Positions 8,853-31,765 of a stretch of 32,000 bases of DNA are shown here, one piece after another (the stretch's first letter is position 1; every line of letters begins with the position of its first letter). Both the position numbers and the translations under genes were made by a program. This stretch comes from Trichlorobacter lovleyi SZ (GTDB lineage Bacteria > Desulfobacterota > Desulfuromonadia > Geobacterales > Pseudopelobacteraceae). The notes under the pieces are model-generated. The model searched no databases, had not been told where the DNA came from, and saw nothing but the letters and a program-made list of their open reading frames with translations. The stretch lies in contig NC_010814.1 in the NCBI RefSeq assembly GCF_000020385.1, positions 390,001 to 422,000 on the forward strand, read 5' to 3'.

Positions 8853-8864
8853 TTCTTTGCAGGT

Positions 8865-10820: not shown

Positions 10821-10886
10821 TTAAAAAAACGGCATGGCTGGGATGCTGCAATTGATAACATCTCAATATTACATCAAAAACAAAAC

Positions 10887-10901: not shown

Positions 10902-10923
10902 CTAACAATAACCATCTATGGGC

Positions 10924-10967
10924 AACGGCGCCTGCGGGACTGATCTCCTGCGGCGCCGTTTCTGTTT
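10924..10967 (+). terminator. Intrinsic-terminator-like hairpin inside the nifB 5' leader
   Basis: aacggcgcc...ggcgccgtt forms a 9-bp perfect outer stem plus an inner gcggga/tcctgc stem with a 6-nt loop. It is followed by tctgttt, then the RBS AGGAG (10971-10975) and ATG 10984. Confidence 0.5.
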
Positions 10968-10983
10968 GAAAGGAGCGTACACC

Positions 10984-11805: not shown

Positions 11806-11857
11806 GACAGTATCAGCGGTTTCCTGACAACGGTACGAATGTGAGAAAGGTTTAGCC

Positions 11858-12658: not shown

Positions 12659-12674
12659 GCAAAGGAGCCTGACC

Positions 12675-13817: not shown

Positions 13818-13956
13818 TCCCGATCCCATTGCAAGGCGCAATCTTTGTTGGCTCGTCTTCGGCTCCTCAATGTACTGCGTGTACACCTGCGTCGCCGCAT
13901 TCCTTGCCACCTTGATATCATCCTTGAACTGGAATCGGAATAAAGGAGGACTAATT

Positions 13957-14190
13957 ATGTGTACATCAGGAACGACCGTACCGATTGCCGAGGCAGCTGC
14001 TTTGCTGGCCACCACTGAGACACGGGTGCTGATGATGCTGAAGAAAAATGAGCTGCAGGGTAATCAGGTTGATGGTGACTGGTTTGTTGATAAGGCATCG
14101 TTGCAGCTCTGCGGCAAACCGCTCCCGTCGGATATCGTCAAGAAGGGCTGTGGCGGCGGGTGTGGCAGCGGCGGTTGCGGCAGTCATTGA
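13957..14190 (+). CDS. Small helix-turn-helix protein with a C-terminal Cys/Gly-rich tail
   Basis: A strong RBS (AAAGGAGGA) lies 6 nt upstream. TVPIAEAAALLATTETRVLMMLKKNELQG is excisionase/MerR-type HTH-like. The tail is GCGGGCGSGGCGSH. Confidence 0.5.
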   Translation: MCTSGTTVPIAEAAALLATTETRVLMMLKKNELQGNQVDGDWFVDKASLQLCGKPLPSDIVKKGCGGGCGSGGCGSH

Positions 14191-14202
14191 TTCGAAATAT
14201 TG

Positions 14203-14321
14203 CCACAGAGAACACAGCGTTCTCAGAGAAAAGCAAAACCTCAAAATAATTTTGATGTTATCCCTGCAAAACAGGTTTTAGGGTTTTATTTGTCTCTCTG
14301 TGTGCTCTGTGCCCTCTGTGG
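14203..14321. repeat. Structured intergenic element bounded by imperfect inverted repeats (REP/MITE-like)
   Basis: CCACAGAGAACACAG (14203-14217) pairs with CTGTGCCCTCTGTGG (14307-14321) at 13/15. Internal hairpins include GAGAAC-acagc-GTTCTC, CAAAAT-a-ATTTTG and AAAAC-ag-GTTTT. Confidence 0.4.
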
Positions 14322-14345
14322 CTAACAGATTTGAAGGGGTGGCAT

Positions 14346-14636
14346 ATGCTCATCGTCAAGGCATTTGATCTGAAGTTCAAATATCGCAAGTATGTCGAAA
14401 CCCGCGACGAACCGAAATTTTCAGGCCTGCCTGATCCTGCGCCATTCAACCGGGATGATCTGTACGAGGTGCTGCCGATGATGGGGGCGGTGATGGATCA
14501 GCTTGGTACAGCGGACGGCGAGATCCTGAACCGGCTTGAAGATTTTCTCAACACCATGCCGCGTTTCATCACCAGTCGTGAGGAGACCTTCCACTATCTG
14601 GTGGGGTGTGGCAGCCAGTCGATGGAAGGATACTAA
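14346..14636 (+). CDS. Hypothetical protein (nif-neighbourhood, 96 aa)
   Basis: The ORF shows coding-like composition and the ATG is preceded by gaagggg. I recognise no family. Confidence 0.45.
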   Translation: MLIVKAFDLKFKYRKYVETRDEPKFSGLPDPAPFNRDDLYEVLPMMGAVMDQLGTADGEILNRLEDFLNTMPRFITSREETFHYLVGCGSQSMEGY

Positions 14637-14648
14637 CAGGAGGATAGT

Positions 14649-15080
14649 GTGGCCCGTATTACGTTTTATACAAAGATAGGATGCTTAACCTCACAGAAGC
14701 AGCTGGCGCTGTTGCAGGAGGCGGGGCATCAGGTGGTGCTGCAGGATCTGCTGGCCCATCCCTGGACCGCCGAGGAGCTGCGGTCCTACTTTGGTGATCT
14801 GCCGGTGCAGGATTGGTTTAATCCCAATGCCACACGTATCAAGTCGGGCGAGATTGATCCTGAGGCCTATGCGGCTGATGAGGCGCTTGCCGTGATGCTG
14901 CAGGATCACCTCCTGATCCGGCGGCCTCTGATGGAATCCGGCAACAGCAGACGATGCGGATTCGATCCGGCTGTTATCCATGACTGGGTCGGGCTTGCCA
15001 AGCATGGTGATGCCTTTGTGTTCAGGGGCGATCTTTCCAGCTGTTCCAATCCCGGCGCTGTGGCATCTGCCTGCCCTTGA
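14649..15080 (+). CDS. ArsC/Spx-family protein of the nitrogenase-associated type
   Basis: GTG start. It has an N-terminal ITFYTKIGCLTSQKQ thioredoxin-like fold and an LLIRRPL motif typical of the ArsC family. The nif context matches the 'nitrogenase-associated protein' subfamily. Confidence 0.65.
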   Translation: MARITFYTKIGCLTSQKQLALLQEAGHQVVLQDLLAHPWTAEELRSYFGDLPVQDWFNPNATRIKSGEIDPEAYAADEALAVMLQDHLLIRRPLMESGNSRRCGFDPAVIHDWVGLAKHGDAFVFRGDLSSCSNPGAVASACP

Positions 15081-15273
15081 CAGTCGCATACAGGACGTTA
15101 CTGGATGTTTCGAGTAGTGAAGTCTCTCTGGCGGCACCAGGTGTGATTTAAGACACCAATCGTATTTCAGGTGCTTATTGAATATAAGAGGTTTCTGGTC
15201 TACTATGACCTGAATGTCCGGCGACACACGGGTGTCGCTCTACATTCAATCATCAGCAGGGGAGTGTACCTCA

Positions 15274-16401
15274 ATGTCCATGAGATCTTGTATTCCGGCA
15301 GTACTCAGCTTGTTCAGCCTTCTGGTGGCCGGCTGTACGCACACGCTTCCTCCGCATCAGGAGGTGAACCAGGCCTTGCAGAAAACGCTGAATTCCAGCG
15401 GCTATAACTACACCTCCAAAAGCAGCATCACAAACCTGGCAGTGCCGGTCAAGGATCTGAAGACTGCTGCCTCCAAACAGCAGTATCTGGAAAAGAGTCT
15501 GGAGATGGCGCGGGGGCTTTCGATCATTGCTGATGGCGCCATTGACATGAAGAACAAAAAATCCGAGGTGCTGTACAACCTGCACTACGATCAGGACAAT
15601 GTCGAGGTTTCAATCAAGGTACCGCTGCTGTTTGATTATACCACCCAGACCCTGTATGTCGGCACAACCCTTTTTAACACCATCTTTCCGATGGCTCCGG
15701 GCAACAAAGGCAAGCTGATCAGGATTGATCTGAATGACCTGCTGAAACTTACCGGTGAGAAGTCTGACAAACTTAAAAACCTGCTCGGCAAGAAGTACTT
15801 TGATTCGGTTAACGAGGGATTGAAACAAGGGGTTTTAAAGGGCTTTGCCGGTCTGAAGGATGAGCGTTTCAGTGATCAGCCGCTTACGGGTGACGACAAG
15901 GCAGCGGGTCTGGTCAGGCATATCACGGTCAGACTGAATCATGAGGAGTCGGTTACGCTGCTGCTTACCATTGCAGACACCCTTATCCAGCGGCTGTACC
16001 AGGATGGTGTGCTGAGCAAGGAAGAGTACGGTACCCTGATGATCCTGACTGACAAGCAGAAAGTCGACACCTACCTGGCTACCTTCAGTATGGCTGTTAC
16101 CCTTGATATCGGGCTGGCATCAACAGGGCAGATCAGCCGGATTGAAAGCCGCTTCACGGTGGCGGGTAAGGACAACCGCTACCAGGTCGGTGTGGCGAAT
16201 ATCAGCCGGTTCAGCCGCTATGATGACCCGCTTTTTACGATCAGGCCTGAGCTGACCGGTACGGTTGACCATAAAGAGATTCTTGAGTCGATCCTGGCGG
16301 CCAGGGCAGCCCAAAAGGCCGAAGCAGAGGCAAAAAAGGCTAAAGAGCCCAAAGAGGCTGAACCTGAAGCACCCAAGGAAGAAAAGAAGATCGCTGAATA
16401 G
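15274..16401 (+). CDS. Lipoprotein of unknown function with a Lys/Glu/Ala-rich C-terminal tail
   Basis: The signal peptide MSMRSCIPAVLSLFSLLVAGC has an LVAGC lipobox. RBS aggggag lies 9 nt upstream. The tail is AAQKAEAEAKKAKEPKEAEPEAPKEEKK. Confidence 0.6.
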   Translation: MSMRSCIPAVLSLFSLLVAGCTHTLPPHQEVNQALQKTLNSSGYNYTSKSSITNLAVPVKDLKTAASKQQYLEKSLEMARGLSIIADGAIDMKNKKSEVLYNLHYDQDNVEVSIKVPLLFDYTTQTLYVGTTLFNTIFPMAPGNKGKLIRIDLNDLLKLTGEKSDKLKNLLGKKYFDSVNEGLKQGVLKGFAGLKDERFSDQPLTGDDKAAGLVRHITVRLNHEESVTLLLTIADTLIQRLYQDGVLSKEEYGTLMILTDKQKVDTYLATFSMAVTLDIGLASTGQISRIESRFTVAGKDNRYQVGVANISRFSRYDDPLFTIRPELTGTVDHKEILESILAARAAQKAEAEAKKAKEPKEAEPEAPKEEKKIAE

Positions 16402-16416
16402 GCTGCTTGGATTGAA

Positions 16417-16447
16417 GGCTGCTGGCCCCCAAAGGGTCAGCAGCTTT
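16417..16447. terminator. Hairpin between convergent genes (it overlaps the cowN-like stop)
   Basis: ggctgctggccc-ccaaa-gggtcagcagc forms an 11-bp stem with 1 mismatch and is followed by ttt. Confidence 0.45.
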
Positions 16448-16733
16448 CCGCCTCAATCCGGTCCAGCAGTGCCAGGGCCGGCTGGTCATCGTAGGTCTCG
16501 AACAGCTCTCTGATGTTATTGATATAGGCATGGACCAGATACAGCTCATCCTGACTGAAACCGCTGGTTTCATCCGGCTTATTGATCTTCTCCAGTTTGT
16601 CTTTAAACAGCTCCCAAAAGCGATTGGTCCTGGCAGGGTCATCAATATGGCGGCGGAGCAGCGCCACCAGCTTTCGTGCATTTGAGTCGCCATCAATCCC
16701 CACAAATGAAACATAGCGGTCAGGTTTACTCAT
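16437..16733 (-). CDS. cowN: CowN-like N2-fixation sustaining protein (protects nitrogenase from CO), tentative
   Basis: 98 aa. [40 protein letters not shown]...[13 protein letters not shown] fits my recollection of the CowN family pattern (DRYxSF..ID...NA......D....N.FW ... LL..IE.E.C). I could not run a search. Confidence 0.55.
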
Positions 16734-17158
16734 TGCAGTGCATCCAGCCGCAGGGCAAAGGTCAGATCACATCCCGCCAGGGGGTGATTACCATCCAGCG
16801 TTACTTCCTTCTGATCCGCCTCCAGAATCACCAATATCCGCTCTCTGCCGCCGCTGAATTCAATCCGCAGCTTTTCACCGATCCGCAGCTCCCGTTCAGC
16901 CGGAAACATCTCCCGCTTCACCTTGATGATATTGGCATCAAGGCGCGGCCCGTAGGCCTCTGCCGCAGGGATCAGGATATTCTTGGTCTCGCCCGCAGCC
17001 ATGCCGATGATGGCCTGTTCCAGCGCAGAAAAGACCTGGTCATTGCCGATGGTAAAGGTTAACGGGCCGCTGGTTTCGGTGCTGTCGAAGATCCGGCCGG
17101 TATCCAGGGTGCCGATATAACTGACCGTCACCGTACTGCCGTGTCGGGCCTGTTTCAT
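16730..17158 (-). CDS. FKBP-type peptidyl-prolyl isomerase, SlyD-like (no metal-binding tail)
   Basis: [18 protein letters not shown]...[21 protein letters not shown] and C-terminal [18 protein letters not shown] are present. ATG 17158 has GGAG 8 nt upstream. ATGA overlaps join it to both neighbours. Confidence 0.75.
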
Positions 17159-17478
17159 AGAGGTGTCTCCTTGTCTGGTTTTGGGCAGCCGCAGGCTCCG
17201 CAACTGCAGATCCGCCGGCCGCACCTGCTGCAGGCGGGGTTTTGGGGGTCCCGTCCGTCAACCGTCCTGCCGCAGGACGGACAGCTGTAGCGGTAGAAGG
17301 CAAAGCCGCAGTTGCAGCAGTACCGCATGCCGTCGGCATCCGGTTTGTCTGCGATATGTATTGATTCGCAGATCAGGCAGACCGAGGCCATCTCCGGGCA
17401 GTTTCTGATGCCGTCCCGCTGGGAACGGTACTTCCTGAACAGCCGTTTACCCTCTGCGCGGTCAATGGGTAGTGCCAT
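17155..17478 (-). CDS. Cys-rich (14 Cys in 107 aa) zinc-ribbon-like protein, function unknown
   Basis: ATG 17478 is preceded by GGAGG. It carries the CxxC pairs CLIC, CCNC, CPSC, CSRC and CSCGACGC. It is translationally coupled to the downstream FKBP gene. Confidence 0.5.
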   Translation of the reverse strand: MALPIDRAEGKRLFRKYRSQRDGIRNCPEMASVCLICESIHIADKPDADGMRYCCNCGFAFYRYSCPSCGRTVDGRDPQNPACSRCGRRICSCGACGCPKPDKETPL

Positions 17479-20144: not shown

Positions 20145-20681
20145 TCATCTGCTTTGAGTGTGCAACTTCTCAAGCGGATTAAGATAGAACATCCTCTCAA
20201 ATCCATATTTTTCTGCCTTAAAAAGCCACGGGTAGGGAATTTGAGTGATGATTGCGTAATGGAGGTGGGGCGCTTTACCCGCTGCGTTCCCTGTCGCGCC
20301 TACCGTGCCAATGACGCTGCCTTTGCTGACAAAGGCGCCACTCGTAACGTGTACCGTTTTCAGGTGCGCGTAGTAATGAACCCGCCATTTGGGGCCAAGT
20401 ATTGAAACAACATTACCACCGGCGGGGATATATCCGGCATTTACCACAAGCCCGGAACTGGCGGCAATCACCGGAGTTCCCTCCCTGGCAAAGATGTCGA
20501 TTCCCTTGTGTACTCCTGACGCGCCCCATGGACTGAACCAGAAGCTTTTTGCGTTCCAGTCTGCTTTTGTAGCGCCTTGTACCGGGATCATCAGACGTTC
20601 AGGCACGAGCAAACCGCAGCTGATAAGAATCACCGCAATAACTGCCAACGTGCCAAGAATTTTTATGCCGGATCGTTTCAT
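20145..20681 (-). CDS. M23 family metallopeptidase with an N-terminal membrane anchor
   Basis: HKGIDIFA (HxxxD) and PHLHYAI (HxH) motifs are present, along with the N-terminal TM helix ILGTLAVIAVILISCGLLV. GC content is lower than in the flanking core genes. Confidence 0.8.
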   Translation of the reverse strand: MKRSGIKILGTLAVIAVILISCGLLVPERLMIPVQGATKADWNAKSFWFSPWGASGVHKGIDIFAREGTPVIAASSGLVVNAGYIPAGGNVVSILGPKWRVHYYAHLKTVHVTSGAFVSKGSVIGTVGATGNAAGKAPHLHYAIITQIPYPWLFKAEKYGFERMFYLNPLEKLHTQSR

Positions 20682-20705
20682 GGTTGCCTGCTGGCCGAGG
20701 TTTTA

Positions 20706-21434
20706 TCAGTCTTCCAGGAGAGTAGGGAGGAGCTTCTTGTAGTTGTTCAAGAAACTTCTTGTTATTGAAAAATGTTCCGTCTCCTCGTAAGAAATCTCAG
20801 ATATTCCATGCTCGTCCAAATGTAGAATCTTTGCATCGGGGTAAGACAGTAGAATAGGTGAATGGGTTGCAATTATGAATTGCGATTCTTTTTTGACTAA
20901 TTGATGAATTGCCGAGATTGCCGCCATTTGTCGCGTTGGCGATAGTGCGGCCTCTGGCTCGTCAAAAATATAAAGGCCTTTCCCTCTGAGCTTCAGCGTG
21001 AGCGCGGCCATAAAAGCCTCGCCGTGTGAACGTTCATGGAGCAATTTGTCCCCATAACCGGAAGTAATGCCACCAACCTGATCCATATATGTTGCAACGT
21101 TATAAAAACTTTCAGCACGAAGAAAGTAATAGTCCTTTGGTGTTGCAAAACTCCGAATAGTTTTTAAATACCGGTGAAGTGTTGATATTGTGTCCGCTGT
21201 TGCGAGGTTGAAATTCCGTGTTCCACCCTCAGAACTGAATCCCATCGCCAGAGCTATTGATTCGATAAGTGTAGATTTTCCAGCACCATTTTCGCCGACG
21301 AAGAATGTCACACCGGAATGGAATTGAAGTGTATTGATATTCCGAATTGCAGGAATGTTGAATGGATACTTATCCCAATCCGTAATCATATCTTCCTTCA
21401 GCGAGATTGCTTTCAGATATGGTCTTGCCTGCAT
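20706..21434 (-). CDS. Stand-alone ABC/SMC-like AAA ATPase (COG3910-type predicted ATPase)
   Basis: Walker A GENGAGKST, signature-like SHGEAF, Walker B LYIFDEPEAALSP and H-loop ATHSP are present. There is no TM or substrate domain. The gene is markedly AT-richer than the core genome. Confidence 0.75.
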   Translation of the reverse strand: MQARPYLKAISLKEDMITDWDKYPFNIPAIRNINTLQFHSGVTFFVGENGAGKSTLIESIALAMGFSSEGGTRNFNLATADTISTLHRYLKTIRSFATPKDYYFLRAESFYNVATYMDQVGGITSGYGDKLLHERSHGEAFMAALTLKLRGKGLYIFDEPEAALSPTRQMAAISAIHQLVKKESQFIIATHSPILLSYPDAKILHLDEHGISEISYEETEHFSITRSFLNNYKKLLPTLLED

Positions 21435-21457
21435 TGGCGTCTCTCTACGTTTTGGCT

Positions 21458-21916
21458 TTAACGGTGCGGTTGGATCTTCGTCTTCTTCAGTTTGAACTTG
21501 TGGCCTTCGAACATTCGGAAAGCCTCCTCTGATACTTCATCAAGTGAAACCTTGATTGTTGTGATGTCATCAGGCGCAGCTTCCTCCCATCGGTCGACCA
21601 AGTCCACTTGGCAACCAGACTCCAATAGGTCATTCAGAGCTTGATACAATTGGCGTGTTGCATCAAGTTCGTCTTTCTCCTCCTGATACCAATCTTCAGG
21701 TTTCGAGAAGCCAAGCTCGACGGACTCGACATAAAGGTGCCGGAAAGTGCAACCACAGCCGGTTTTTGAACCAACTTCCCACTTGTTTGGGAATTCAAGA
21801 ACTGAAAGGCATGGGTCCGATTCCGGATTTGTCACCTTCTCAAACCGAACAAGCTCGGTGTTACGGTCGGTCAGGTCAGTTGAGCTGTCAGTTGAGATAT
21901 GAACCATGTAGCACAT
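21458..21916 (-). CDS. Hypothetical protein (152 aa; the ORF could extend to 21943)
   Basis: ATG 21916 has AAGGA 7 nt upstream. A conserved-looking core WEVGSKTGCGCTFRH...PEDWYQEE is present. I recognise no domain. Confidence 0.5.
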   Translation of the reverse strand: MCYMVHISTDSSTDLTDRNTELVRFEKVTNPESDPCLSVLEFPNKWEVGSKTGCGCTFRHLYVESVELGFSKPEDWYQEEKDELDATRQLYQALNDLLESGCQVDLVDRWEEAAPDDITTIKVSLDEVSEEAFRMFEGHKFKLKKTKIQPHR

Positions 21917-21992
21917 CTGTTTATCCTTATGATCCAACGTCATAAGCCTGACCGGCCATCAGGCAGGTCGTGGCGCTGGTTGAAAGCTGTCG

Positions 21993-22625
21993 TCACGGAG
22001 AAACTCGTACCATGAACTCAATTACAGACTGAATCATGTTTGAAACCTGATCTTTTGTGTATTCCTGAAAATGGCCATGAGCAGCCTTATTTCTAAGGTC
22101 AAGCCACATAGTTACTGCCTTTTGGTCTAATTTTGAATAAACTTCTGCCTTAGCTAAATCTGAGTTTAAGCGATCAGCTTTCTTTGGACGCAATACGCCG
22201 TCTGTTTCAACCTCGATTTCTACTCCATTGCTTATTGCCAACTGACGTAAATGCTCCTCCAGAACACTTCCAGCAATTACTGCTGCAGGATCTTTGTAAT
22301 TCTGTGAGAGCAGATGCTGAGCCATTTCAATAAAATCCGAGAATATTTCAGCCGAGATCAAGCCCTTTAAGCTAAATAGCCAACCACCAGATATTTCCCT
22401 TTTTATTGAAGTTAATATTGCAATGCCAACTTCAGCGTCATGTTTATCAGTTCCATCTGCTGCCTTATGAAACTCAAGATAATGTGAATGATCTTTTCCA
22501 TATACTCTTTCAATGAAAGACAAGGCTGCAGATCTAAAGCCCTTCATGGCACCAGTATCTACCCATCCCCAGCCACTTCCGTCGCTTCTGTATGTCCTAC
22601 GAACCTCTTCTCCTTGTTGAATCAA
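21993..22625 (-). CDS. HEPN-like (DUF4145/Abi-type) protein with an Rx4H motif, probably 5'-truncated
   Basis: The C-terminal helical region ends in WLDLRNKAAHGH (R178-x4-H183, coded at 22077-22094). The first possible start is a TTG without an RBS, and the frame stays open a further 24 codons upstream, to the stop at 22698-22700 about 50 nt from the IS110 transposase ATG. Confidence 0.45.
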   Translation of the reverse strand: MIQQGEEVRRTYRSDGSGWGWVDTGAMKGFRSAALSFIERVYGKDHSHYLEFHKAADGTDKHDAEVGIAILTSIKREISGGWLFSLKGLISAEIFSDFIEMAQHLLSQNYKDPAAVIAGSVLEEHLRQLAISNGVEIEVETDGVLRPKKADRLNSDLAKAEVYSKLDQKAVTMWLDLRNKAAHGHFQEYTKDQVSNMIQSVIEFMVRVSP

Positions 22626-22751
22626 CTGATCAATTCGAACTACTAGCCATAATGGCTGCCAGTTGAAATAAGTAGACCTGCCCCTTGCACACGTGGGTTA
22701 AGCTGAGAATGTGAGATTCACAGCACAGAGCCACAACCAAGGAGGCAGGTC

Positions 22752-23861
22752 ATGGAAAAGTGTATCACGTATGTCGGGCTTGATGTTCACAAAAACTCCA
22801 TAGATGTCGCTTTGGCCGATGAAGGCCGTGACAAGGAAGTCCGTTACTACGGCACTATTGACGGCAGTCTTGATGCATTGGACAAAGTTCTCAGAAAACT
22901 GGTTTCTCGTGGTACCGAACTTCGATTCGTCTATGAAGCTGGCCCGTGCGGTTATGACATCTATCGGCACCTAACCCGTAAGGGTTTTGATTGTATCGTG
23001 GTTGCCCCTTCTTTGATTCCCAAGAAGAGCGGCAGCCGAATAAAGAATGATCGGCGTGATGCCGAGATGCTGGCCCGTCTGCACCGAGCAGGCGAACTGA
23101 CTCCGGTCTATGTTCCGCGCATCGAAGATGAGGCAATGCGCGACCTCTGCAGGGCCCGTATCGATGCAAAGAATGCTGAGCGAAAGGCCCGTCAGCAATT
23201 GAATGCATTTCTGCTGCGCAGCGGCTTCCGCTATAGCGGCAAAACACTCTGGAGTCTTGCCCATTGGCGTTGGATCTCCGACATACACATGACGCATTCC
23301 GCACAGCAGATCACCCTGCAGGAGTATGTGGATGCAGTCAGATCGAACACAGAGCGCGTTGATAGGATCACGGAACAGATTTGCCTGCTTGCTGCAGAAT
23401 GGCGACTTGGTCCGGTTGTCGAAGCGCTCCAAGCTCTGCGGGGAGTCTCTCTGGTAGTTGCCTCAACCACCGTTGCTGAGCTTGGTGACTTGAGTCGCTT
23501 TGACAATCCCCGACATCTGATGGCGTATCTGGGGCTTGTACCTTCAGAACACTCAAGTGGAGAGTCAACACAGCGAGGCGGTATAACCAAGACTGGCAAT
23601 GGACATGCACGCCGAATGCTGGTCGAAGCTGCCTGGTCGTATCGGTTGCCGGCACGGGTTAGCAGGCGACTTCGAGACCGACAACAGAATCTGCCGCAAG
23701 CGGTATGGGAGATTGCCTGGAAGGCACAGCTCAGACTTTGCGCCCGCTACAAACGACTTGTTACCAAAGGCAAGCAGGCACAGGTAGTCATTACCGCCAT
23801 TGCCAGAGAACTGTCCGCATTCATGTGGGCTATAGCCCAAGCAGTACCAGTCGCATCGTAA
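22752..23861 (+). CDS. IS110 family transposase (DEDD recombinase)
   Basis: N-terminal YVGLDVHKNSI, then FVYEAGPCGY, KNDRRDAEMLARL and C-terminal LRGVSLVVASTTVAELGDLSRFDNPRHLMAYLGLVPSEHSSGES are present. RBS AAGGAGG lies upstream. Confidence 0.9.
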   Translation: MEKCITYVGLDVHKNSIDVALADEGRDKEVRYYGTIDGSLDALDKVLRKLVSRGTELRFVYEAGPCGYDIYRHLTRKGFDCIVVAPSLIPKKSGSRIKNDRRDAEMLARLHRAGELTPVYVPRIEDEAMRDLCRARIDAKNAERKARQQLNAFLLRSGFRYSGKTLWSLAHWRWISDIHMTHSAQQITLQEYVDAVRSNTERVDRITEQICLLAAEWRLGPVVEALQALRGVSLVVASTTVAELGDLSRFDNPRHLMAYLGLVPSEHSSGESTQRGGITKTGNGHARRMLVEAAWSYRLPARVSRRLRDRQQNLPQAVWEIAWKAQLRLCARYKRLVTKGKQAQVVITAIARELSAFMWAIAQAVPVAS

Positions 23862-24045
23862 CCAGATTTCAAAGAACATGATTCAGTTTCTGTCCACAGA
23901 GGTTGCGGCCAAGGTACCGGAGAATCCTCGGGCCTGTTATGGGATAAGGCATCAAGCCGAACTCCCGGCTCTAGCGAGAGGCAGCTCCACGACGTAGGCA
24001 AGACATGCGGTAACCAACCCGCGAATATCAGCGTGATCTACCGTC
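23862..24045 (+). ncRNA. Candidate IS110/IS1111-type guide (bridge/seek) RNA region in the 3' non-coding tail of the element
   Basis: At least 184 nt of non-coding sequence follow the recombinase stop, with local hairpins (e.g. ctct-agcg-agag). The call is based only on position and the known biology of the family. I could not fold or model it. Confidence 0.25.
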
Positions 24046-24135
24046 GTTGAAAAAGGCCCCGTACCTCTGGGACAGAAATTTAAAAGATCAAAAGGGGCAG
24101 AATATTTTAGGCTTGAAACTGTCAGCCATATCAAC

Positions 24136-24174
24136 AGGCTGTTGAAATTGAAGTAGTAAAAACAGCCTTTTTTT
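24136..24174 (+). terminator. Terminator-like hairpin upstream of the IS5 transposase gene
   Basis: aggctgtt-N17-aacagcct is followed by ttttttt. It would block read-through into the transposase gene. Confidence 0.45.
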
Positions 24175-24218
24175 AGTATATTTGTGCGCACAACACTCCG
24201 GTTTGATTGAGGAAAGTT

Positions 24219-25301
24219 ATGCGCGGAACTGATGTCCAGAATGAAGCTCTTTTTGCCTATGTGACGCCTGAGTCATTTGTACCCAAGGATCATCCCCTGC
24301 GTGCTATTCGCAGTATGGCTGATCAGGCACTTTCCGAGATGAGCCCGCTCTTTGACAGCATGTATGCCGATTCCGGTCGTTCTTCCATTGCCCCGGAGAA
24401 GCTGCTGAAAGCACAACTGCTGATGATACTGTTCAGCATCCGCAGTAACCGGCAACTGGTAGAGCAGATCCGCTACAACTTCCTGTACCGCTGGTTCCTT
24501 GGCATGGGACTGGATGATGAAATCTGGGATCACTCCAGCTTCACTAAGAACCATGAACGGTTAATTGGCTCTGATGTGGCCGCAGAGTTTCTATCCCGTA
24601 TCCTTGCTCAGGCAGAGCGCAAGCGTCTCCTGTCCCGAGAGCACTTCACCGTTGACGGCACCTTGATTGAGGCATGGGCCTCCATCAAGAGCTTCAAGCC
24701 CAAAGACGGTCCGCCATCTGCCGGTGGTGGCAAAAATAAATCAGTTGATTTCAAAGGCAAACAACTCAAAAACGACACTCATTCTTCCAGCACTGATCCA
24801 AACGCCAGACTGTACCGCAAGGGCAACACCAAAGAGGCCAAGCTCTGCTACCAGGGACACACCTTGATGGAGAATAGAAACGGTCTGATCGTCAAGACCA
24901 GCGTCACCACGGCAACCGGTACCGGAGAGCGTGAAGCCGCCAAGGCCATGATCAGACAATTGCCTCGTACTACCCGGCGTATCACCGTCGGTGCAGACAA
25001 AGGATACGACACCGAAGGCTTTGTCAAAGAGCTCAGGCAAATCAACGTCACGCCGCATGTGGCTCAGAACAACACCAGAAGGAAATCAGGCATTGATGGC
25101 AGAACCACCGCTCATCCGAATTACAGCATAAGCCAAAGGATCAGAAAACGGATCGAGGAAGGCTTTGGCTGGATGAAGACCATCGGCAGACTGAGAAAGA
25201 CCATGTATCGAGGCATTGAGAAGATTGCCTGGCAGCTTGATCTCCATGCAGCGGCCTACAACCTGGTACGCATGAAAAACCTGGGGCTCGGTGTCACCTG
25301 A
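24219..25301 (+). CDS. IS5 family transposase (InsH-type N-terminal domain plus DDE domain)
   Basis: HPLRAIR...APEKLLKAQLLMILFSIRSNRQLVEQIRYNFLYRWFLGM is the transposase InsH N-domain. C-terminal GADKGYD and RKRIEEGFGWMK are DDE_Tnp motifs. ATG 24219 follows gaggaaag. Confidence 0.85.
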   Translation: MRGTDVQNEALFAYVTPESFVPKDHPLRAIRSMADQALSEMSPLFDSMYADSGRSSIAPEKLLKAQLLMILFSIRSNRQLVEQIRYNFLYRWFLGMGLDDEIWDHSSFTKNHERLIGSDVAAEFLSRILAQAERKRLLSREHFTVDGTLIEAWASIKSFKPKDGPPSAGGGKNKSVDFKGKQLKNDTHSSSTDPNARLYRKGNTKEAKLCYQGHTLMENRNGLIVKTSVTTATGTGEREAAKAMIRQLPRTTRRITVGADKGYDTEGFVKELRQINVTPHVAQNNTRRKSGIDGRTTAHPNYSISQRIRKRIEEGFGWMKTIGRLRKTMYRGIEKIAWQLDLHAAAYNLVRMKNLGLGVT

Positions 25302-25895: not shown

Positions 25896-26363
25896 TCAGA
25901 TTTTCTGTTTACCTTTGCTGCGTGTACTATCAGCCATAAGCTCGCTGGGCGACACGCTCCCGTCACGATTATTGTCCATCTTTTGCAGGGTGATCGTTGC
26001 GTCAGCAATCTCATCCGCATCAAGCTCACCGTTACGGTCCTGGTCAAATACCTGGATGAGCGGATGGCTTTTTTGAGGACTGAGCGAGGCTCCGGCATAC
26101 AGGGTAAAGAGCGATATGACAAGCCCGGCAGTTATGGCCATCAAGGATGCACGCTGTCGCACATATGAGGCAAAGGTTCTCCAGTTTACAGCCAGATGCA
26201 GCATGCCGGCTGCCATAAATGCATACCCGATCCATTCATGCAGGGCCTTGACGCCGCCGGTCTTGACGTGAAATGCCAGTAAGACACCGGATATCCCTAC
26301 AACCAGAAATGTTGTTAAAACGAGTGGACTTAGCATTGTGCGATGTTCTGTGCTGCTTATCAT
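25896..26363 (-). CDS. Membrane protein with two C-terminal EF-hand Ca-binding loops
   Basis: There are three or four N-terminal hydrophobic helices (DUF4405-like). These are followed by DQDRNGELDADEI and DNNRDGSVSPSEL, which are canonical DxDxDG-type EF-hand loops. Confidence 0.6.
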   Translation of the reverse strand: MISSTEHRTMLSPLVLTTFLVVGISGVLLAFHVKTGGVKALHEWIGYAFMAAGMLHLAVNWRTFASYVRQRASLMAITAGLVISLFTLYAGASLSPQKSHPLIQVFDQDRNGELDADEIADATITLQKMDNNRDGSVSPSELMADSTRSKGKQKI

Positions 26364-26654
26364 GGTGACTATTCTCCTTTGGGTTAGTGTTGAATATGCC
26401 TGAGGCGCATCAAGCCAGAGTCAGATGAATATGTTGTGAACGAATTGTGAAAAAATATGCACATAGCTCTTGCCGGTTTATGCCGGCTCGTCCCGGCTGA
26501 TTCTTCTGCCACTATGGGTATCCTGACGGATTAGTTCCCGGGCGCCCTGCTCATATTTGCCAAAAATTGCAGCAGGTATTTTGCTGCCGTCTGCGTGCTG
26601 AAACTAAAACAGCTTGAAACTATTAGGTGTTTATTGGTATATGACTTTGGCATG

Positions 26655-26678
26655 CGTTATGTAGTTAAGTATATAGCG
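26655..26678. promoter_or_regulatory. Candidate ModE operator (Mo-box) 1
   Basis: CGTTATGTAGTTAAGTATATAGCG is a 24-nt imperfect palindrome with TAT-rich half-sites. It lies 25 nt upstream of the methyltransferase ATG and shares the CGTTAT-N12-ATAnCG frame with boxes 2 and 3. Confidence 0.55.
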
Positions 26679-26702
26679 AGTCTGGAGAAGAGGGGGATTT
26701 TT

Positions 26703-27365
26703 ATGCAGATTGACGCCAAAAAATTCGACCTGATTGCCCGTAACGTCTTTGCCCCGGCCTATTCGTTGCTGGCGGAACAGATCATGGAGCGCACCGGTAT
26801 CATGAGTGGCCTCTGTCTGGACCTGGGCAGTGGCGGCGGCTATCTGGGGCTGGCCCTGGCCTGGAACAGCAAGCTGCGGGTCTGTCTGCTGGATGAGTCT
26901 GCAGAGATGCAGGCGATTGCCGAGCAGAATATCTACGACAAGCGGCTGGATAACCGGGTGGTGGCGCTGTGCGGCGATGTCCATTACCTGCCGCTCAAGA
27001 ACAACAGTGTCGATCTGGTGGTCAGCCGCGGTTCGGTCTATTTCTGGGATGATCTGGCCCAGGTGCTGCGAGAGATCTGGCGGGTGCTGGCGCCGGGCGG
27101 TCAGGTCTGCATCGGCGGCGGTTTCGGTTCAAAGGCGCTGAAGGATGAGATCGTCGCCAAGATGCGCCAGACTGAGCCGGACTGGCAACCCAGGTGCGGA
27201 AAGTTTGATGACGCATGTTTCCATGACGCCGTCAAGCTGGCCGGTATACCCGACGCAGAGCTGCTGAAAGACGAAAGCGGTACCTGGCTTATTTTTAAGA
27301 AGCCGTTTGAGTATCTGTTGGAGCGGATGGCAGACAATTACGTCACTGCCTGTGACTACAAATGA
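26703..27365 (+). CDS. Class I SAM-dependent methyltransferase
   Basis: It has motif I CLDLGSGGGYLGLALA, the post-I acidic LLDES, and VVSRGSVYFW...LAPGG (Methyltransf_11/25-like). ATG 26703 follows gaggggg. Confidence 0.8.
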   Translation: MQIDAKKFDLIARNVFAPAYSLLAEQIMERTGIMSGLCLDLGSGGGYLGLALAWNSKLRVCLLDESAEMQAIAEQNIYDKRLDNRVVALCGDVHYLPLKNNSVDLVVSRGSVYFWDDLAQVLREIWRVLAPGGQVCIGGGFGSKALKDEIVAKMRQTEPDWQPRCGKFDDACFHDAVKLAGIPDAELLKDESGTWLIFKKPFEYLLERMADNYVTACDYK

Positions 27366-27375
27366 GGAAGATTGT

Positions 27376-27732
27376 ATGACGATTCAGGATGGCATACGCA
27401 GCTTGCTGTGCAGTGTGACGGCCTTGGCCCTGCTCGCCCTGCCGCTGATTAGTGAGGCCCGCACCATTACCGATATGACCGGCAGGAAGGTGCAGGTGCC
27501 GGATCGGATCACCAGGGTTTACGCCAGCTCGCCTCCTGCCACCTATCTGCTGTACGCCCTGGACCCGGCGCTGATTGTCGGCCTGAATTTCCCTCTGAAC
27601 GAGACCGAGGAGCGTTTTCTAAAACCTGCGGATAGCAGATTCCGCACGGCTGTCCGAAGGAGTGCTGCATTTATGATCACAACAAAGCAATGCGTGTTGC
27701 CAGAACAGGGCAGGCAACTGATTAGTACATGA
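27376..27732 (+). pseudogene. 5' fragment of a periplasmic substrate-binding protein gene (FecB/BtuF-type, cluster A), apparently truncated
   Basis: A signal peptide plus ITDMTGRKVQVPDRITRVYASSPPATYLLYALDPALIVGLNFPL is the typical N-terminal strand-helix of siderophore/cobalamin-type binding proteins. After about residue 85 the sequence becomes non-homologous-looking and stops at 118 aa, whereas the family is normally about 300 aa or longer. Confidence 0.45.
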
Positions 27733-27824
27733 AATTACAGTCTGTTATGCCCGGCTTTGTTTTGGCTTGTGTTATGCACCCTTCACAGAACTATGAAAAC
27801 TCTCAGCGAAGAGGGAGTACCCCC

Positions 27825-28811
27825 ATGATTGGTGCTGGATTGAATCTGCTGGCATTACTGCCCTGTCCGGTCAAGGTGCCGATTGAACAGGCCTTTGACG
27901 AATACCTGGCCACCTTGCCGCCTGAGCGTGCAGCCGCGCTGCGCTGCCAGCTGGAAGGAAACGCCAATATTGAGTCGGATTATTACAACACAGTGGAGCA
28001 ACTGACAGAGCTGGACCAGTTTCCGGACATCATCATCTCCCCCGGTTTCAACAGTCTCTTTGAACGTCCCTTTGTGGAGCGGTTCATCCAGACCAACCGG
28101 TTTGTCAGCGTCAACGACTATGCCGGTGACCGGCATCTTTCAGCACTGGGGGTCTGTGATCCCACCGGGCATTACACCATGCTGGCCATGAACCTGCTGG
28201 TGCCGGTGGTGGATCACCGCCGCCTGGGGGGTCGTCCGGTGCCCCGCTGCTGGGCTGATCTGCTCAAACGGGAGTACGAGAACAGTCTGGCCATCCGTGG
28301 CCATAAGGACGGCACCTTTTGTGAGACCCTGCTGCTGGCCATCTACAAGGATACCGGCGTGGAAGGGCTGCGCACGATGGGCAGGAATGTCCGTTATGGC
28401 TGGCATCCTTCCCAGATGGTCAAGGCTGCCCTGGGCAGCAGCGCTGATGCGCCGGCCATCAGTGTCATGCCGCTCTTTTTTGCCCAAACCCTGGTTGGCA
28501 AGGAGCAGTACAGCATCATCTGGCCCGACGACGGTGCCCTGATCAGTCCGGTGACTATGCTGGTCAAGACAGAAAAACGGGCTGAACTGGATGACCTGCT
28601 GGCGTTCTGGGCTGGTCCGCAGGTGGCGTCCATCTTCAGCGGCGCCTTTTTCCCGGCGGTCCACCCGGGGGTGGATAATCAGCTGCCCGAGGCCGCAACC
28701 TTCAAATGGATCGGTTGGGATTACATCATCAACAATGATATCAAAAAGCTGATCAGCGGCGTGAATGCTGCCTTCCGGCAGGGCCGTGGGGAGAACATCA
28801 GATGCGCCTGA
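27825..28811 (+). CDS. PBP-fold (ABC substrate-binding-like) protein, apparently without a signal peptide from the preferred start
   Basis: ATG 27825 has GAGGGAG about 8 nt upstream. N-terminal LNLLALLPCPVKVPIEQAF matches my recollection of a cytoplasmic PBP2-like family. The alternative ATG 27729 has no RBS and would add MKLQSVMPGFVLAC, which resembles a lipobox. Confidence 0.55.
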   Translation: MIGAGLNLLALLPCPVKVPIEQAFDEYLATLPPERAAALRCQLEGNANIESDYYNTVEQLTELDQFPDIIISPGFNSLFERPFVERFIQTNRFVSVNDYAGDRHLSALGVCDPTGHYTMLAMNLLVPVVDHRRLGGRPVPRCWADLLKREYENSLAIRGHKDGTFCETLLLAIYKDTGVEGLRTMGRNVRYGWHPSQMVKAALGSSADAPAISVMPLFFAQTLVGKEQYSIIWPDDGALISPVTMLVKTEKRAELDDLLAFWAGPQVASIFSGAFFPAVHPGVDNQLPEAATFKWIGWDYIINNDIKKLISGVNAAFRQGRGENIRCA

Positions 28812-29488
28812 TAACCGTGGCAGGGCCGCCCTCTTCGGGCAAGACCGCCATCATCTGCAAGACTGCTGAGGCGCTGCAGGCCGATGGTGTCTCTGTTGGT
28901 GTGATCAAGTTTGACTGTCTCTCGTCAGGGGATCAGGCACTGTACGAGCGGCGCGGCATCCCGGCCCGTACCGGGCTGTCCGGCAACCTCTGCCCGGATC
29001 ATTTCTATGTCAGCAACATTGAAGAATGTCTGGATTGGGGCCTGCAGAGCGGCTTTGATCTGCTGATCAGCGAGAGCGCAGGTCTGTGCAACCGGTGCGC
29101 CCCCCATATCAAGGAGGTCTGCGCGGTCTGCGTGATCGATAACTTAAGTGGTGTGGAGACCCCGCGCAAGATCGGTCCGATGCTGAAGATGGCTGATATT
29201 GTGGTGATTACCAAGGGCGATATCGTCTCCCAGGCAGAACGTGAGGTCTTTGTCCACCGCATCCGTCAGGTCAACAGCAGTGCCGTGATCATCCATGTCA
29301 ACGGCCTGACCGGCCAGGGAGGCCATGAGCTGGGGCGGCTGCTGCAAGATGCTGCTGCGGTTGATTCGCTGCAGGGCAAACTGCTGCGCTTTTCCATGCC
29401 GGCCGCACTCTGCTCCTACTGTCTGGGACAACGCCGGATCGGCGCTGATTTTCAGATGGGTAACGTCAAGAAAATGGAATTGGGGTAG
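28802..29488 (+). CDS. G3E-family P-loop GTPase (HypB/UreG/CobW-like metallochaperone type)
   Basis: Walker A GPPSSGKT, a LLISESAGLCNRCAP block comparable to HypB ENVGNLVCPA, and TKGD in place of NKxD are present. It overlaps the upstream stop by 10 nt. Confidence 0.7.
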   Translation: MRLITVAGPPSSGKTAIICKTAEALQADGVSVGVIKFDCLSSGDQALYERRGIPARTGLSGNLCPDHFYVSNIEECLDWGLQSGFDLLISESAGLCNRCAPHIKEVCAVCVIDNLSGVETPRKIGPMLKMADIVVITKGDIVSQAEREVFVHRIRQVNSSAVIIHVNGLTGQGGHELGRLLQDAAAVDSLQGKLLRFSMPAALCSYCLGQRRIGADFQMGNVKKMELG

Positions 29489-29493
29489 CCGCT

Positions 29494-30495
29494 ATGGAAC
29501 GCACCTATGCCGCTATGACCCTTGAGCGGTTGTTTAGCGAACATCCCCATGCACGGGAGTTCTTTTCTGCCCTTGGCCTGTCCGCACTGCCTGAAGACCA
29601 GACCCTGGGCAGAACCGTGGCGGCACTGGATGAAGAGCTGCTGTTGGATGTGGGGATTGAACGCCAGGAGCTGTTGGGACAGTTCTGCGACTACATGGCA
29701 GGGGTGGAACGGCTGCGCAACCAGCAGCAGGCTCTGGTCTCATCGGTCACGGTGCTGGGAGGGCATGACAAGAGCGGCAATCCTGAAAACTTCAGGCTTG
29801 AACTGCGGCCCGGCGAGGTGACCTGCATTGTCGGTCCCACCGGATCAGGCAAGAGCCGCTTTCTGGCAGATATAGAATGGCTGGCCCAGGGGGATAGCCC
29901 CACCGGACGGACGGTCCTGATTAACGGAGCGGCCCCTGACCTGGCCCGGCGCTATGCGGTGGAGCAGAAACTGGTGGCCCAGCTCTCCCAGAACATGAAC
30001 TTTGTGATGGACCTTTCGGCGGAAGAGTTTATCCGGCTGCATGCTGAAAGCCGGATGATAGCTGATCCGGCTGCCATCACCGCCACTATCCTTGAGCTGG
30101 CCAACAGTCTGGCCGGTGAGCAGTTCACCCCGGTCACGCCGGTCACAGCCCTGTCCGGCGGCCAGTCCCGCGCCCTGATGATCGCTGACGTGGCCTGCCT
30201 CAGTAGCTCGCCGATCGTGCTGATTGATGAGATCGAAAACGCAGGGATCGATCGCAAGCGGGCGTTGTCGTTGCTGGCGGATCAGGACAAGATTGTGCTG
30301 ATGGCCACCCATGACCCGATCCTGGCCCTGATGGGGCAGCAGCGGCTGATCTTCAAGAATGGCGGTGTCTCCAGCATCCGCAGCACCAGCCCGGCAGAGC
30401 GGGCCAACCTGACCCTGTTTGAACAGATGGATGCACGCCTGACTGCAGTGCGCCATGCCCTGCGCAACGGGGAAGAGATAGCAGGAAACTTCTGA
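29494..30495 (+). CDS. ABC-type ATPase with an about 100-aa N-terminal extension (DUF1858-like)
   Basis: Walker A GPTGSGKS, signature LSGGQSRAL, Walker B IVLIDEIENAGID and H-loop ATHDP are present. The N-terminus TLERLFSEHPHAREFFSALGL resembles DUF1858. No permease gene is adjacent. Confidence 0.75.
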   Translation: MERTYAAMTLERLFSEHPHAREFFSALGLSALPEDQTLGRTVAALDEELLLDVGIERQELLGQFCDYMAGVERLRNQQQALVSSVTVLGGHDKSGNPENFRLELRPGEVTCIVGPTGSGKSRFLADIEWLAQGDSPTGRTVLINGAAPDLARRYAVEQKLVAQLSQNMNFVMDLSAEEFIRLHAESRMIADPAAITATILELANSLAGEQFTPVTPVTALSGGQSRALMIADVACLSSSPIVLIDEIENAGIDRKRALSLLADQDKIVLMATHDPILALMGQQRLIFKNGGVSSIRSTSPAERANLTLFEQMDARLTAVRHALRNGEEIAGNF

Positions 30496-30687: not shown

Positions 30688-30711
30688 CGTTATTTAGATC
30701 TATACATAACG
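30688..30711. promoter_or_regulatory. Candidate ModE operator (Mo-box) 2
   Basis: CGTTATTTAGATCTATACATAACG has perfect outer arms CGTTAT/ATAACG. It lies 70 nt upstream of the preferred modE start. Confidence 0.55.
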
Positions 30712-30781
30712 TCATTTTGAGTATACTTTTCTCACTATGAACAGCCGTCAGGCAGGAAATCCTCATTCAGGGAGCGTCAGC

Positions 30782-31588
30782 ATGAACAGCGCAGGGACCG
30801 TAGAACTGAACGGGAATCTCTGGTTTACCAGGGACACCAGTAAATTTCTGGGGAACGACCGGATCGCCCTGTTGGAAAAGATCGATGAACTCGGTTCCAT
30901 CACCAGGGCTGCCAAGGCGGTTGGTATCAGTTACAAGACCGCCTGGGAGATCGTGAACCAGATCAACAATCTTGCGGCGGTGCCGTTGGTTGACCGTGCC
31001 ACCGGAGGGAAAGGGGGAGGCGGCGCCAGCCTGACCGTAACAGGTCGCGAGGTGCTGGAACAGTTTCGTGTTGTGCAGGAGGAACACGGAAAATTTTTGA
31101 AAAACCTGGATATGCGTCTTGGTGACACCAACAATCTGTACCAATTTTTACGGAGGATTTCCATGAAAGTCAGCGCACGTAACGTGTTCAGCGGTACCGT
31201 CACATCCATTGCCAAAGGGGCCGTGAACGCCGAGGTTTCACTTGGCCTGAAAGGTGCTACTGCCATTACCGCCGTGGTAACCAACGGCGCAATCACTAAC
31301 CTTGGCCTGCAGGAGGGCATGTCTGCCTATGCGATTGTCAAGGCCAGTTCCGTGGTAATCGGCACAGATCTGGCAGAAGCAAAGCTCAGCACCCGGAATC
31401 AGCTGACCGGTACGATTGCCAAGCTGGTTGAGGGACCGGTCAGTTGTGAGGTTGATCTGGAGCTGCCCGGTGGCAACACCATCAGCGCCGTGATTACCGA
31501 TGGCAGCGCCAAACGGCTGGGCTTGAAGGTTGGCGGCACGGCAACGGCTCTGTTTAAGGCTTCCAGCGTGATTTTAGGGGTCAGCTGA
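30782..31588 (+). CDS. modE: Molybdate-dependent transcriptional regulator ModE (HTH plus two Mop/TOBE domains)
   Basis: RIALLEKIDELGSITRAAKAVGISYKTAWEIVNQINN...ATGGKGGGGASLT is the ModE N-domain. Two copies of SARNVFSGTVTSI...AIVKASSVVIG-type Mop repeats follow. ATG 30782 has GGGAG upstream; ATG 30737 is an alternative start. Confidence 0.85.
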   Translation: MNSAGTVELNGNLWFTRDTSKFLGNDRIALLEKIDELGSITRAAKAVGISYKTAWEIVNQINNLAAVPLVDRATGGKGGGGASLTVTGREVLEQFRVVQEEHGKFLKNLDMRLGDTNNLYQFLRRISMKVSARNVFSGTVTSIAKGAVNAEVSLGLKGATAITAVVTNGAITNLGLQEGMSAYAIVKASSVVIGTDLAEAKLSTRNQLTGTIAKLVEGPVSCEVDLELPGGNTISAVITDGSAKRLGLKVGGTATALFKASSVILGVS

Positions 31589-31741: not shown

Positions 31742-31765
31742 CGTTATATTTTGAGCACCATAACG
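31742..31765. promoter_or_regulatory. Candidate ModE operator (Mo-box) 3
   Basis: CGTTATATTTTGAGCACCATAACG has the same CGTTAT-N12-ATAACG frame. It lies 18 nt upstream of the modD ATG. Confidence 0.55.

Follow-up and report, generated by a model that had tools for sequence, protein, structure and literature searches.

A permease-less triad of solute-binding-fold protein, G3E GTPase and ABC ATPase beside modE in Trichlorobacter lovleyi: a candidate cytoplasmic metallochaperone module

A 32,000-nucleotide (nt) stretch of Trichlorobacter lovleyi SZ DNA (contig NC_010814.1, positions 390,001 to 422,000; "the window" below, with coordinates counted from its first letter) carries three tightly packed forward-strand genes, here called the triad. 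The first encodes a protein with a solute-binding-protein (SBP) fold of the SBP_bac_6 family and a cytoplasmic location (27825..28811, 328 aa; Pfam 1e-83, 281 bits), the second a cysteine-rich G3E P-loop GTPase of HypB/UreG-like type (28802..29488, 228 aa; Pfam cobW 2e-11, 44.2 bits against a cut-off of 20.7) and the third a soluble ABC-type ATPase (29494..30495, 333 aa; Pfam ABC_tran 1.4e-13, 52 bits). Upstream on the same strand lie the gene for an S-adenosylmethionine (SAM)-dependent methyltransferase (26703..27365, 220 aa; Methyltransf_11, Pfam 5e-20), which is accessory and outside the conserved core, and the remains, recognized by blastx, of a gene for a MolA-related class-III periplasmic binding protein of the Peripla_BP_2 family (27377..27732). 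Downstream follow the gene for the molybdate-responsive regulator ModE (30737..31588, forward strand; Pfam HTH_1 and two TOBE domains, NCBIfam Mop domain above cut-off) and modD, which starts at ~31783 and runs past the window end (QRPTase_N match on its open reading frame, ORF). A first-pass annotation, made from the sequence without database searches, had read the methyltransferase, binding protein, GTPase and ATPase genes as one permease-less operon. Pfam confirms the four protein types, the window ORF list confirms the 10-nt overlap between the SBP and GTPase genes and the 5-nt gap between the GTPase and ATPase genes, and no permease is encoded in the 26.3-32 kb part of the window. The triad proteins carry generic names in public databases, none of them scores above cut-off with any NCBIfam model, and sequence searches of the PDB with them return remote matches only.

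The three genes have been kept together across phyla. A scan with the GTPase motifs, one genome per species, yields 245 relatives, and 80 loci (numbered with the prefix L) were retrieved and analyzed by our own ORF calling, clustering and tblastn mapping; locus counts refer to those 80. SBP, GTPase and ATPase genes occur together in 75 of them, in the order SBP-GTPase-ATPase or GTPase-ATPase-SBP. Four of the five incomplete loci lie on short contigs or are contig-end matches, and the fifth, L074, has GTPase and ATPase genes with no SBP gene in the retrieved sequence. The 10-nt overlap between SBP and GTPase genes recurs in a Pelosinus locus (L030). Read from the record titles, the loci span about nine phyla: Desulfuromonadota, other Desulfobacterota, Bacillota (Pelosinus, Sporomusa, Clostridium, Desulfosporosinus), Chloroflexota, Bacteroidota, Fibrobacterota, Spirochaetota, Chlorobiota and Pseudomonadota. 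The ratio of nonsynonymous to synonymous substitution rates (dN/dS), computed against four relatives, is 0.08-0.16 for the SBP gene, 0.02-0.07 for the GTPase gene and 0.05-0.13 for the ATPase gene, so that the triad is under strong purifying selection (0.02-0.16 over the three genes).

Where does the SBP-fold protein reside? Its frame in the window ORF list runs from 27729 to 28811, and the first-pass annotation, which saw no signal peptide, had held open an alternative start at 27729 with a lipobox-like FVLAC sequence, from which an exported protein could be made. In four relatives (L006, L007, L009 and L028) a stop codon 7-9 codons upstream of the conserved MIGAGLNLLALLPCPVKVP start closes this frame, and a 1-nt indel between the window and L006, in the stretch upstream of MIGAGLNLLALLPCPVKVP, breaks the frame from 27729. 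The start is therefore ATG 27825, and export from 27729 is ruled out. Homologues begin at the MIGAGLNLLALLPCPVKVP motif or carry a DUF1858 domain (DUF1858-SBP fusions of ~409 aa make up ~100 of the best 120 SBP homologues), and no signal peptide is seen among their N-termini across phyla; the comparisons thus agree with the first reading that the protein has none, and it is cytoplasmic. The AlphaFold2 model (mean confidence, pLDDT, 89) has the two-lobe, cluster-D fold of FbpA, FutA and AfuA, and Foldseek aligns it with FbpA/FutA at a template-modeling (TM) score of ~0.65 and 11-17% identity. The most conserved potential ligands are Cys14 (84 of 91 SBP sequences) and His194 (87 of 91), which in the model directly follow strands 6-11 and 189-193, so that each half of the protein contributes one of them at a strand-to-helix turn. 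Such positions are where ligands are held in binding proteins of cluster D, and the Cys and His may stand in for the Tyr/Tyr/His/Glu iron ligands of FbpA.

The GTPase is highly conserved. Its motifs are GPPSSGKT (residues 8-15), C64-P-D-H67, E91-S-A-G-L-C96-N-R-C99, C110, T137-K-G-D140 and C204-x-x-C207. Among 90 GTPase sequences the Walker A motif GPPSSGKT and the ExxG-type G3 motif ESAG (91-94) are conserved, the residues C64, H67, C96, C99, C204 and C207 never vary, and all but one (89) have C110; at the G4 position TKGD replaces the usual NKxD, with K and D invariant and Asn changed to Thr. Identity across the sampled phyla is 61-99%, and the family is a discrete one, with only 469 matches at E<=0.001 among 1.84 billion representative proteins. 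The AlphaFold2 model (pLDDT 81.5) finds HypB and UreG as its top Foldseek matches (TM 0.61-0.73, 20-23% identity), and its Cys/His residues near switch II, C64-P-D-H67 together with the Cys after ExxG, correspond to the ligands of the interface metal site of HypB and UreG (PMC11672702). The protein is neither HypB nor UreG proper, scoring 52 bits with TIGR00073 (cut-off 121.2) and 30.7 with TIGR00101 (cut-off 204.2), and no hyp or ure genes are present in any of the 80 loci. What it shares with these proteins is the fold, the P-loop, the Cys-(Pro)-x-His motif and ExxG with the Cys that follows it; it differs in its extra cysteines (C99, C110, C204-x-x-C207), its TKGD motif, its lack of hyp or ure partners, its link to molybdenum (Mo) and nif genes and the SBP-fold protein and ABC ATPase that always accompany it. 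A gene for a SlyD-like FKBP near the triad in Geobacteraceae loci recalls the HypB-SlyD partnership.

The ATPase consists of a helical N-terminal extension of ~75-85 residues, a canonical nucleotide-binding domain and a C-terminal tail of ~40 residues. GPTGSGKS, the Q-loop, LSGGQ, LIDEIE and THD are all intact and are conserved in 51 homologues, and the nearest solved structures are domains of the MJ0796/MacB/ModC type. No permease is encoded with it in the window, and clusters that contain FecCD have an ATPase of their own of ~260 aa. The first-pass description of its extension as DUF1858-like needs correction: Pfam has no DUF1858 (PF08984) match on the extension at E<=10, nor in any of 120 homologues, and only residues 1-34 match the DUF1858 profile of the SBP homologues (hhalign 94.6%). 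GTPase and ATPase are fused in L072 (9983-11527), L082 (1000-2550), P0363 and P0365. Most of the N-terminal extension is missing from the two mapped fusions, L072 and L082, which points to a docking role for it. P0425 may be an SBP-GTPase fusion, or else a frameshift artefact.

The neighborhoods of the triad point to Mo and nitrogen fixation for one part of the family and to metal importers for another. Genes of the mod group, or a regulator of the HTH_17/PBP_like type, which we take to be TunR-like and to respond to Mo and tungsten (W), lie nearby in 26 loci, nif- or anf-related genes in 25, Peripla_BP_2 and/or FecCD importer genes in 27 and TonB receptor genes in 8, the last overlapping the other classes. 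A methyltransferase gene is found in 18, chiefly with subfamily B and its importers. The two subfamilies are defined by SBP identity to the window protein, at least 38% for A, to which the window belongs, and below 38% for B. Genes of the mod or nif groups lie within 6 kb of 30 of 45 members of A and 9 of 44 of B; importer genes are near 6 of 45 and 27 of 44, and methyltransferase genes near 6 of 45 and 16 of 44. The association with Mo and nif genes proposed at the outset is therefore upheld by conservation of the neighborhood in subfamily A, and also by ModE boxes in several Geobacteraceae; such boxes stand upstream of the SBP, nitrogenase-associated-protein or methyltransferase gene in L009, L016, L019, L020, L022 and L026, with the box of L020 before the methyltransferase. 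The SBP gene has further ties to nitrogenase-associated ArsC-like proteins: one metagenomic protein is a fusion of the two, and in Geobacter sp. SVR the gene for a TIGR01616 nitrogenase-associated protein overlaps the SBP start. In four Pelosinus loci (L030, L032, L034 and L038; ~1-12000) the triad follows anfK, nifB and nifV, genes of the Fe-only nitrogenase, and three small enzyme genes (AIG2-like, GATase and PNPOx-like), and is followed by divergent modAB and a TunR-like regulator gene. The Pelosinus AnfK scores 920 bits against an equivalog cut-off of 854, and anfK of L030 is preceded by ORFs that fit anfD and anfG.

Importer-linked loci have a different aspect. In Trichlorobacter thiogenes, the closest sequenced relative, locus L006 (325-12738) contains FecCD, an ATPase, a second SBP of subfamily B, a TonB receptor, the triad and a Peripla_BP_2 gene; a perfect ModE box after this importer cluster precedes nifH-like, nifX-like and nifA-like genes. 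In a Chlorobaculum locus (L081) a ModE-like box with 1 mismatch (1658-1681) lies before a TP_methylase gene that heads a cluster with TonB receptor, FecCD, ATPase, methyltransferase, Peripla_BP_2 and triad genes, other genes being interspersed, and this importer-plus-triad cluster may be Mo-regulated as a whole. A DUF364 gene is present in four loci; DUF364 has been linked to Mo, W and vanadium transport and to nifH cofitness (PMC2954201; bioRxiv 10.1101/2024.03.05.583561).

The window itself has a clear Mo signature. Scanning with the pattern CGNTATRTA-N6-TAYATANCG gives three matches against 0.07 expected from shuffled sequence. The Mo-box noted in the first-pass annotation is real: a perfect palindrome, CGTTATGTA-N6-TATATAGCG (in full CGTTATGTAGTTAAGTATATAGCG), at 26655..26678, 25 nt before the methyltransferase start codon. 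The two others lie before modE (30688..30711, 1 mismatch) and, as a ModE-like box, before modD (31742..31765, 3 mismatches). Pfam and NCBIfam scans also recover the modE, modD and nif accessory genes named there. A published table of the G. sulfurreducens ModE regulon lists a neighboring FKBP gene; the triad and methyltransferase genes are absent from it.

The four-gene operon of the first-pass annotation did not hold up as an ancestral unit. Homologues of the methyltransferase, whose ORF extends over 26595-27365, align from ATG 26703 (62% identity to L022). With NCBIfam equivalogs of the arsenite, UbiE and BioC types it scores 37-52 bits at best, against cut-offs of 155-510, and the sequence supports only the generic fold of class-I SAM methyltransferases. 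Between it and the triad lies an ORF that had been missed, 27377-27732, with the ~90 N-terminal residues, including a good Sec-type signal, of a Peripla_BP_2 protein of ~375 aa. By blastx, 27397-27645 matches residues ~30-120 of Peripla_BP_2 proteins of 350-430 aa that adjoin homologous clusters elsewhere, and the homology stops near 27625-27645; the ORF is a truncated pseudogene. Its full-length relatives match PDB entries 4PAG and 4OVK first and then MolA (HI_1472). DNA homology with T. thiogenes begins exactly at 27625 and continues at 90% identity through the three downstream genes. Since it starts where the homology of the pseudogene ends, 27625 marks a rearrangement junction. Two close relatives, L007 and L028, have the triad followed by modE-modD-modABC, as in the window, and no methyltransferase upstream. 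Two insertion sequence (IS) elements lie upstream of the methyltransferase, one of the IS110 family (22752-23861) and one with DUF772 and DDE_Tnp_1 domains (24207-25301). Together, the placement of the methyltransferase, the junction and the IS elements indicate that the four-gene order is a recent juxtaposition, in which the stump of an importer gene and a methyltransferase gene carrying its ModE box have been joined to an older three-gene unit. The two transposases belong to an island (20145-25301) that is missing from close relatives and also encodes an M23 peptidase, an AAA_21/SMC-type ATPase and a protein with a weak, sub-threshold likeness to HEPN; this island probably explains the local rearrangement.

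The older unit probably has a separate promoter. A sigma-54-type -24/-12 element, TGGCTTGTGTTATGCA, at 27771..27786 on the forward strand, ~38 nt before the SBP start, shows GG-N10-GC, the spacing found in sigma-54 promoters. Five relatives keep it while its flanks diverge (identical in L006, L007 and L028, near-identical in L008), and in L004, L013 and L071 a similar element precedes the triad. From this conservation, 27771-27786 is a putative nitrogen-type promoter belonging to the triad itself.

What would such a module do? At a probability of roughly 0.55, we favor the reading that the triad is a cytoplasmic, nucleotide-driven metallochaperone module and not a transporter, probably for Mo and used in Mo limitation and nitrogen fixation. 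Mo, or a sulfur-ligated Mo species, is proposed as the most likely cargo because the window's subfamily appears to belong to the Mo-limitation and nitrogen-fixation response. ModABC or MolA-type importers would bring in Mo or an intermediate containing it, which the triad would capture and channel to cofactor assembly, for the nitrogenase cofactor and/or the molybdenum cofactor (Moco). The SBP-fold protein, a Venus flytrap that is never exported, would hold the cargo between its two lobes. The ABC ATPase, with no membrane partner encoded beside it, could use its ATP-driven clamp motion to open or load the binding protein, docking probably through its N-terminal helical extension, which fusion to the GTPase would make dispensable. 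On the model of HypB and UreG, the GTPase would take up a thiophilic metal species as a dimer that depends on GTP, and hydrolysis would set the metal free. Gene content, conservation, cytoplasmic location, motifs, folds, neighborhoods and ModE boxes come directly from the sequence comparisons and models; that the three proteins form a complex, how cargo passes between them, how the genes are controlled and which metal is carried are what we infer here. The initial proposal of an uncharacterized cytoplasmic module for metal or cofactor delivery thus stands as regards the cytoplasmic SBP-fold protein, the permease-free core, the purifying selection and the links to Mo and nif genes, while Mo is only its probable metal and some paralogues have Fur-like boxes. 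Going further, the triad could be the first G3E-GTPase-based metallochaperone machine for Mo or for a Mo-S or Mo-Fe-S intermediate, filling in anaerobic diazotrophs the role that NifQ, NifO and MoSto have in aerobes; the SBP-fold protein would then store or capture scarce Mo, the ABC ATPase would open it, and through the Cys-rich GTPase the metal would reach the assembly of nitrogenase cofactor or Moco. This stronger version is put forward tentatively, as the less probable outcome.

Several observations weigh against Mo as the cargo. The perfect ModE box of the window precedes the methyltransferase and no box stands directly before the triad, whose promoter region in Trichlorobacter has no ModE box recognizable by the pattern scan. 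In 24 loci there is no mod, nif or importer neighbor and the context is uninformative. A site rich in Cys and His is better suited to nickel, zinc, iron, cobalt or sulfur-ligated Mo than to molybdate, a hard oxyanion. Fe(III) and sugar phosphates are the best-known ligands of the fold family to which the SBP belongs. Subfamily B keeps company with TonB, FecCD and Peripla_BP_2 genes, and Fur-like boxes occur upstream of importer-linked paralogous triads, in tandem in two Anoxynatronum loci (L065 1933-1966 and L068 1881-1914) and singly in one of Thermotaleaceae (L064 5936-5954); the family as a whole may therefore not be Mo-specific, and some of its members may be iron-regulated. The metal is the weakest link of the argument, because of the soft ligand set, a fold family known for iron and the Fur-like boxes in some subfamily-B clusters.

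Could the cargo be another metal, with Mo acting only as a regulatory signal? The same kind of cytoplasmic metallochaperone, driven by nucleotide hydrolysis, might serve iron or Fe-S species, for instance for nitrogenase cofactors including the Fe-only one, or nickel, cobalt or zinc. We regard this as possible, if on the doubtful side. The FbpA/FutA fold, the fit of the Cys/His-rich GTPase site to thiophilic metals or clusters, the Pelosinus triads next to anfK-nifB-nifV, the classic iron-chelate machinery of TonB, FecCD and Peripla_BP_2 importers beside subfamily B and the Fur-like boxes of L064, L065 and L068 all speak for it. However, ModE boxes and adjacency to mod genes recur in several phyla, and the binding proteins of the adjacent importers match MolA (HI_1472) at E 3e-14 to 3e-17, with scores about equal to those against solved binders annotated as handling iron complexes and above those against BtuF. 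The Fur-box scan gives mostly weak matches, in AT-rich genomes, and only those three loci are plausible, so that Fur (iron) control survives as an alternative for subfamily B alone.

A further reading, which we consider unlikely, places the triad downstream of an importer, as a cytoplasmic station that receives and processes a metal chelate from a neighboring type II (FecCD) transporter, the window copy being an orphan that has lost its importer. The SBP-fold protein would take the complex at the inner face of the membrane, the ATPase and GTPase would strip the metal, and the methyltransferase, DUF364 or TrmO-like enzymes would modify or recycle the ligand. This would account for the importer genes in 27 loci and the methyltransferases in 18, for the DUF364, TrmO-like or TP_methylase genes and TonB receptors of some loci, for the several paralogous triads per importer cluster in L052, L053, L057, L065 and L068, for the order methyltransferase, periplasmic binding protein, SBP, GTPase, ATPase that the window shares with L060, L075 and L081, for the T. 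thiogenes triad inside its full TonB/FecCD/binding-protein cluster and for the truncated importer binding-protein gene left in the window. But subfamily A adjoins importers in only 6 of 45 cases, and the window triad is under strong purifying selection with no importer beside it. Obligatory association of orthologues with permeases and a different metal regulon, which the first-pass annotation had said would undo its proposal, is not what the loci display: in half of them (40) the 10 kb around the triad contain neither a FecCD nor a ModB gene, although about one third do lie among FecCD, Peripla_BP_2 and TonB genes. No genes for chelate biosynthesis were identified, and no cobalamin or Moco riboswitch reaches the Rfam gathering score in the window and 12 loci (13 sequences), which speaks against corrinoid- or Moco-riboswitch control of the importer-linked clusters. 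A guanidine-I riboswitch lies several kb upstream of the triad locus in a Bacillota metagenome-assembled genome (L069, 683-785) and is probably unrelated. Finally, the triad might be the functionless debris of an ordinary ABC importer, a binding protein and an ATPase left behind when the permease was lost. The truncated periplasmic binding-protein gene, the two IS elements and the junction just upstream have that appearance, as does the lipobox-like sequence at the alternative 27729 start. Against it stand dN/dS values of 0.02-0.16, conservation of the triad across phyla without a permease, catalytic motifs that are all intact and an upstream extension closed by stops in relatives and broken by an indel; given this conservation and selection the remnant reading is rejected as highly improbable.

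Further upstream in the window, an accessory nif block without nifHDK spans 8781-17224. It holds an ANTAR response regulator and DraG, a NifB-like radical SAM protein (10918-11805; 322 bits against a cut-off of 344, without the C-terminal part of the NifB model), NifV (12588-13817), a TIGR01616 nitrogenase-associated ArsC-like protein (14649-15080), a 395-aa ORF with no family match (15214-16401), CowN (~16440-16727, reverse strand) and a SlyD-like FKBP (16730-17224, reverse strand); a GNAT gene is found inside the block as well. The 395-aa ORF was considered as an SBP paralogue and rejected, there being no similarity and no family matches. Between the island and the methyltransferase, a reverse-strand gene (25896-26363) encodes a small membrane protein with DUF4405 and two EF-hand motifs, and a weak lanmodulin match (E 6e-4) that is far below cut-off.

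How does the triad compare with known systems? With FbpA, FutA and AfuA the SBP shares the SBP_bac_6 family and the two-lobe fold; it differs in having no signal peptide or cognate permease, in its frequent fusion to DUF1858 and in the Cys and His at lobe-facing turns. Like NifQ, NifO, Mop/ModG and MoSto, the triad has a ModE-regulon and nif setting, with the SBP coupled or fused to a nitrogenase-associated ArsC-like protein in relatives; it has no relation to them in sequence or fold, and a role in Mo delivery is suggested by its context. MoSto also uses ATP. As in SufBCD and the C-P lyase ATPases PhnK and PhnL, a soluble ABC protein would power cytoplasmic assembly or hand-over, and SufC is the precedent for an ABC nucleotide-binding protein that does so without a membrane domain (PMC9164220). 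The triad lacks SufB/SufD-like or Phn partners, however; its ATPase is partnered by an SBP-fold protein and a GTPase, carries a helical N-terminal extension and is sometimes fused to the GTPase. MolBC-A (HI1470-72) is a molybdate importer of the FecCD type (type II) whose MolA binds molybdate and tungstate (PMC4031551). The Peripla_BP_2 proteins beside many triads, and the truncated window copy, match MolA, but the triad itself stands outside the transporter, the window copy is a pseudogene and the search output names no function for the nearest solved structures, 4PAG and 4OVK. Recent reviews of G3E GTPases list only nickel, cobalt/B12, zinc and iron as clients (PMC11672702, PMC9164220), in agreement with the first-pass remark that none has been assigned to Mo, and full-text literature searches aimed at the triad found no paper describing the gene set and no Mo-linked G3E GTPase. 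The parts of the triad come from known superfamilies; their combination and context are new.

G3E GTPases are the main nucleotide-dependent metallochaperones, and in the triad one of them is joined by two proteins that would work inside the cell, an ABC ATPase and a binding protein of the kind used by transporters. This would be a new architecture, and it stays new if the metal proves to be a different one. How strict anaerobes store and protect Mo, and hand it over to nitrogenase-cofactor or Moco synthesis, is poorly understood, and the triad could fill this gap. If it improves the use of Mo when Mo is low, it would matter for the engineering of nitrogen fixation and for acetogens with their Mo and W enzymes.

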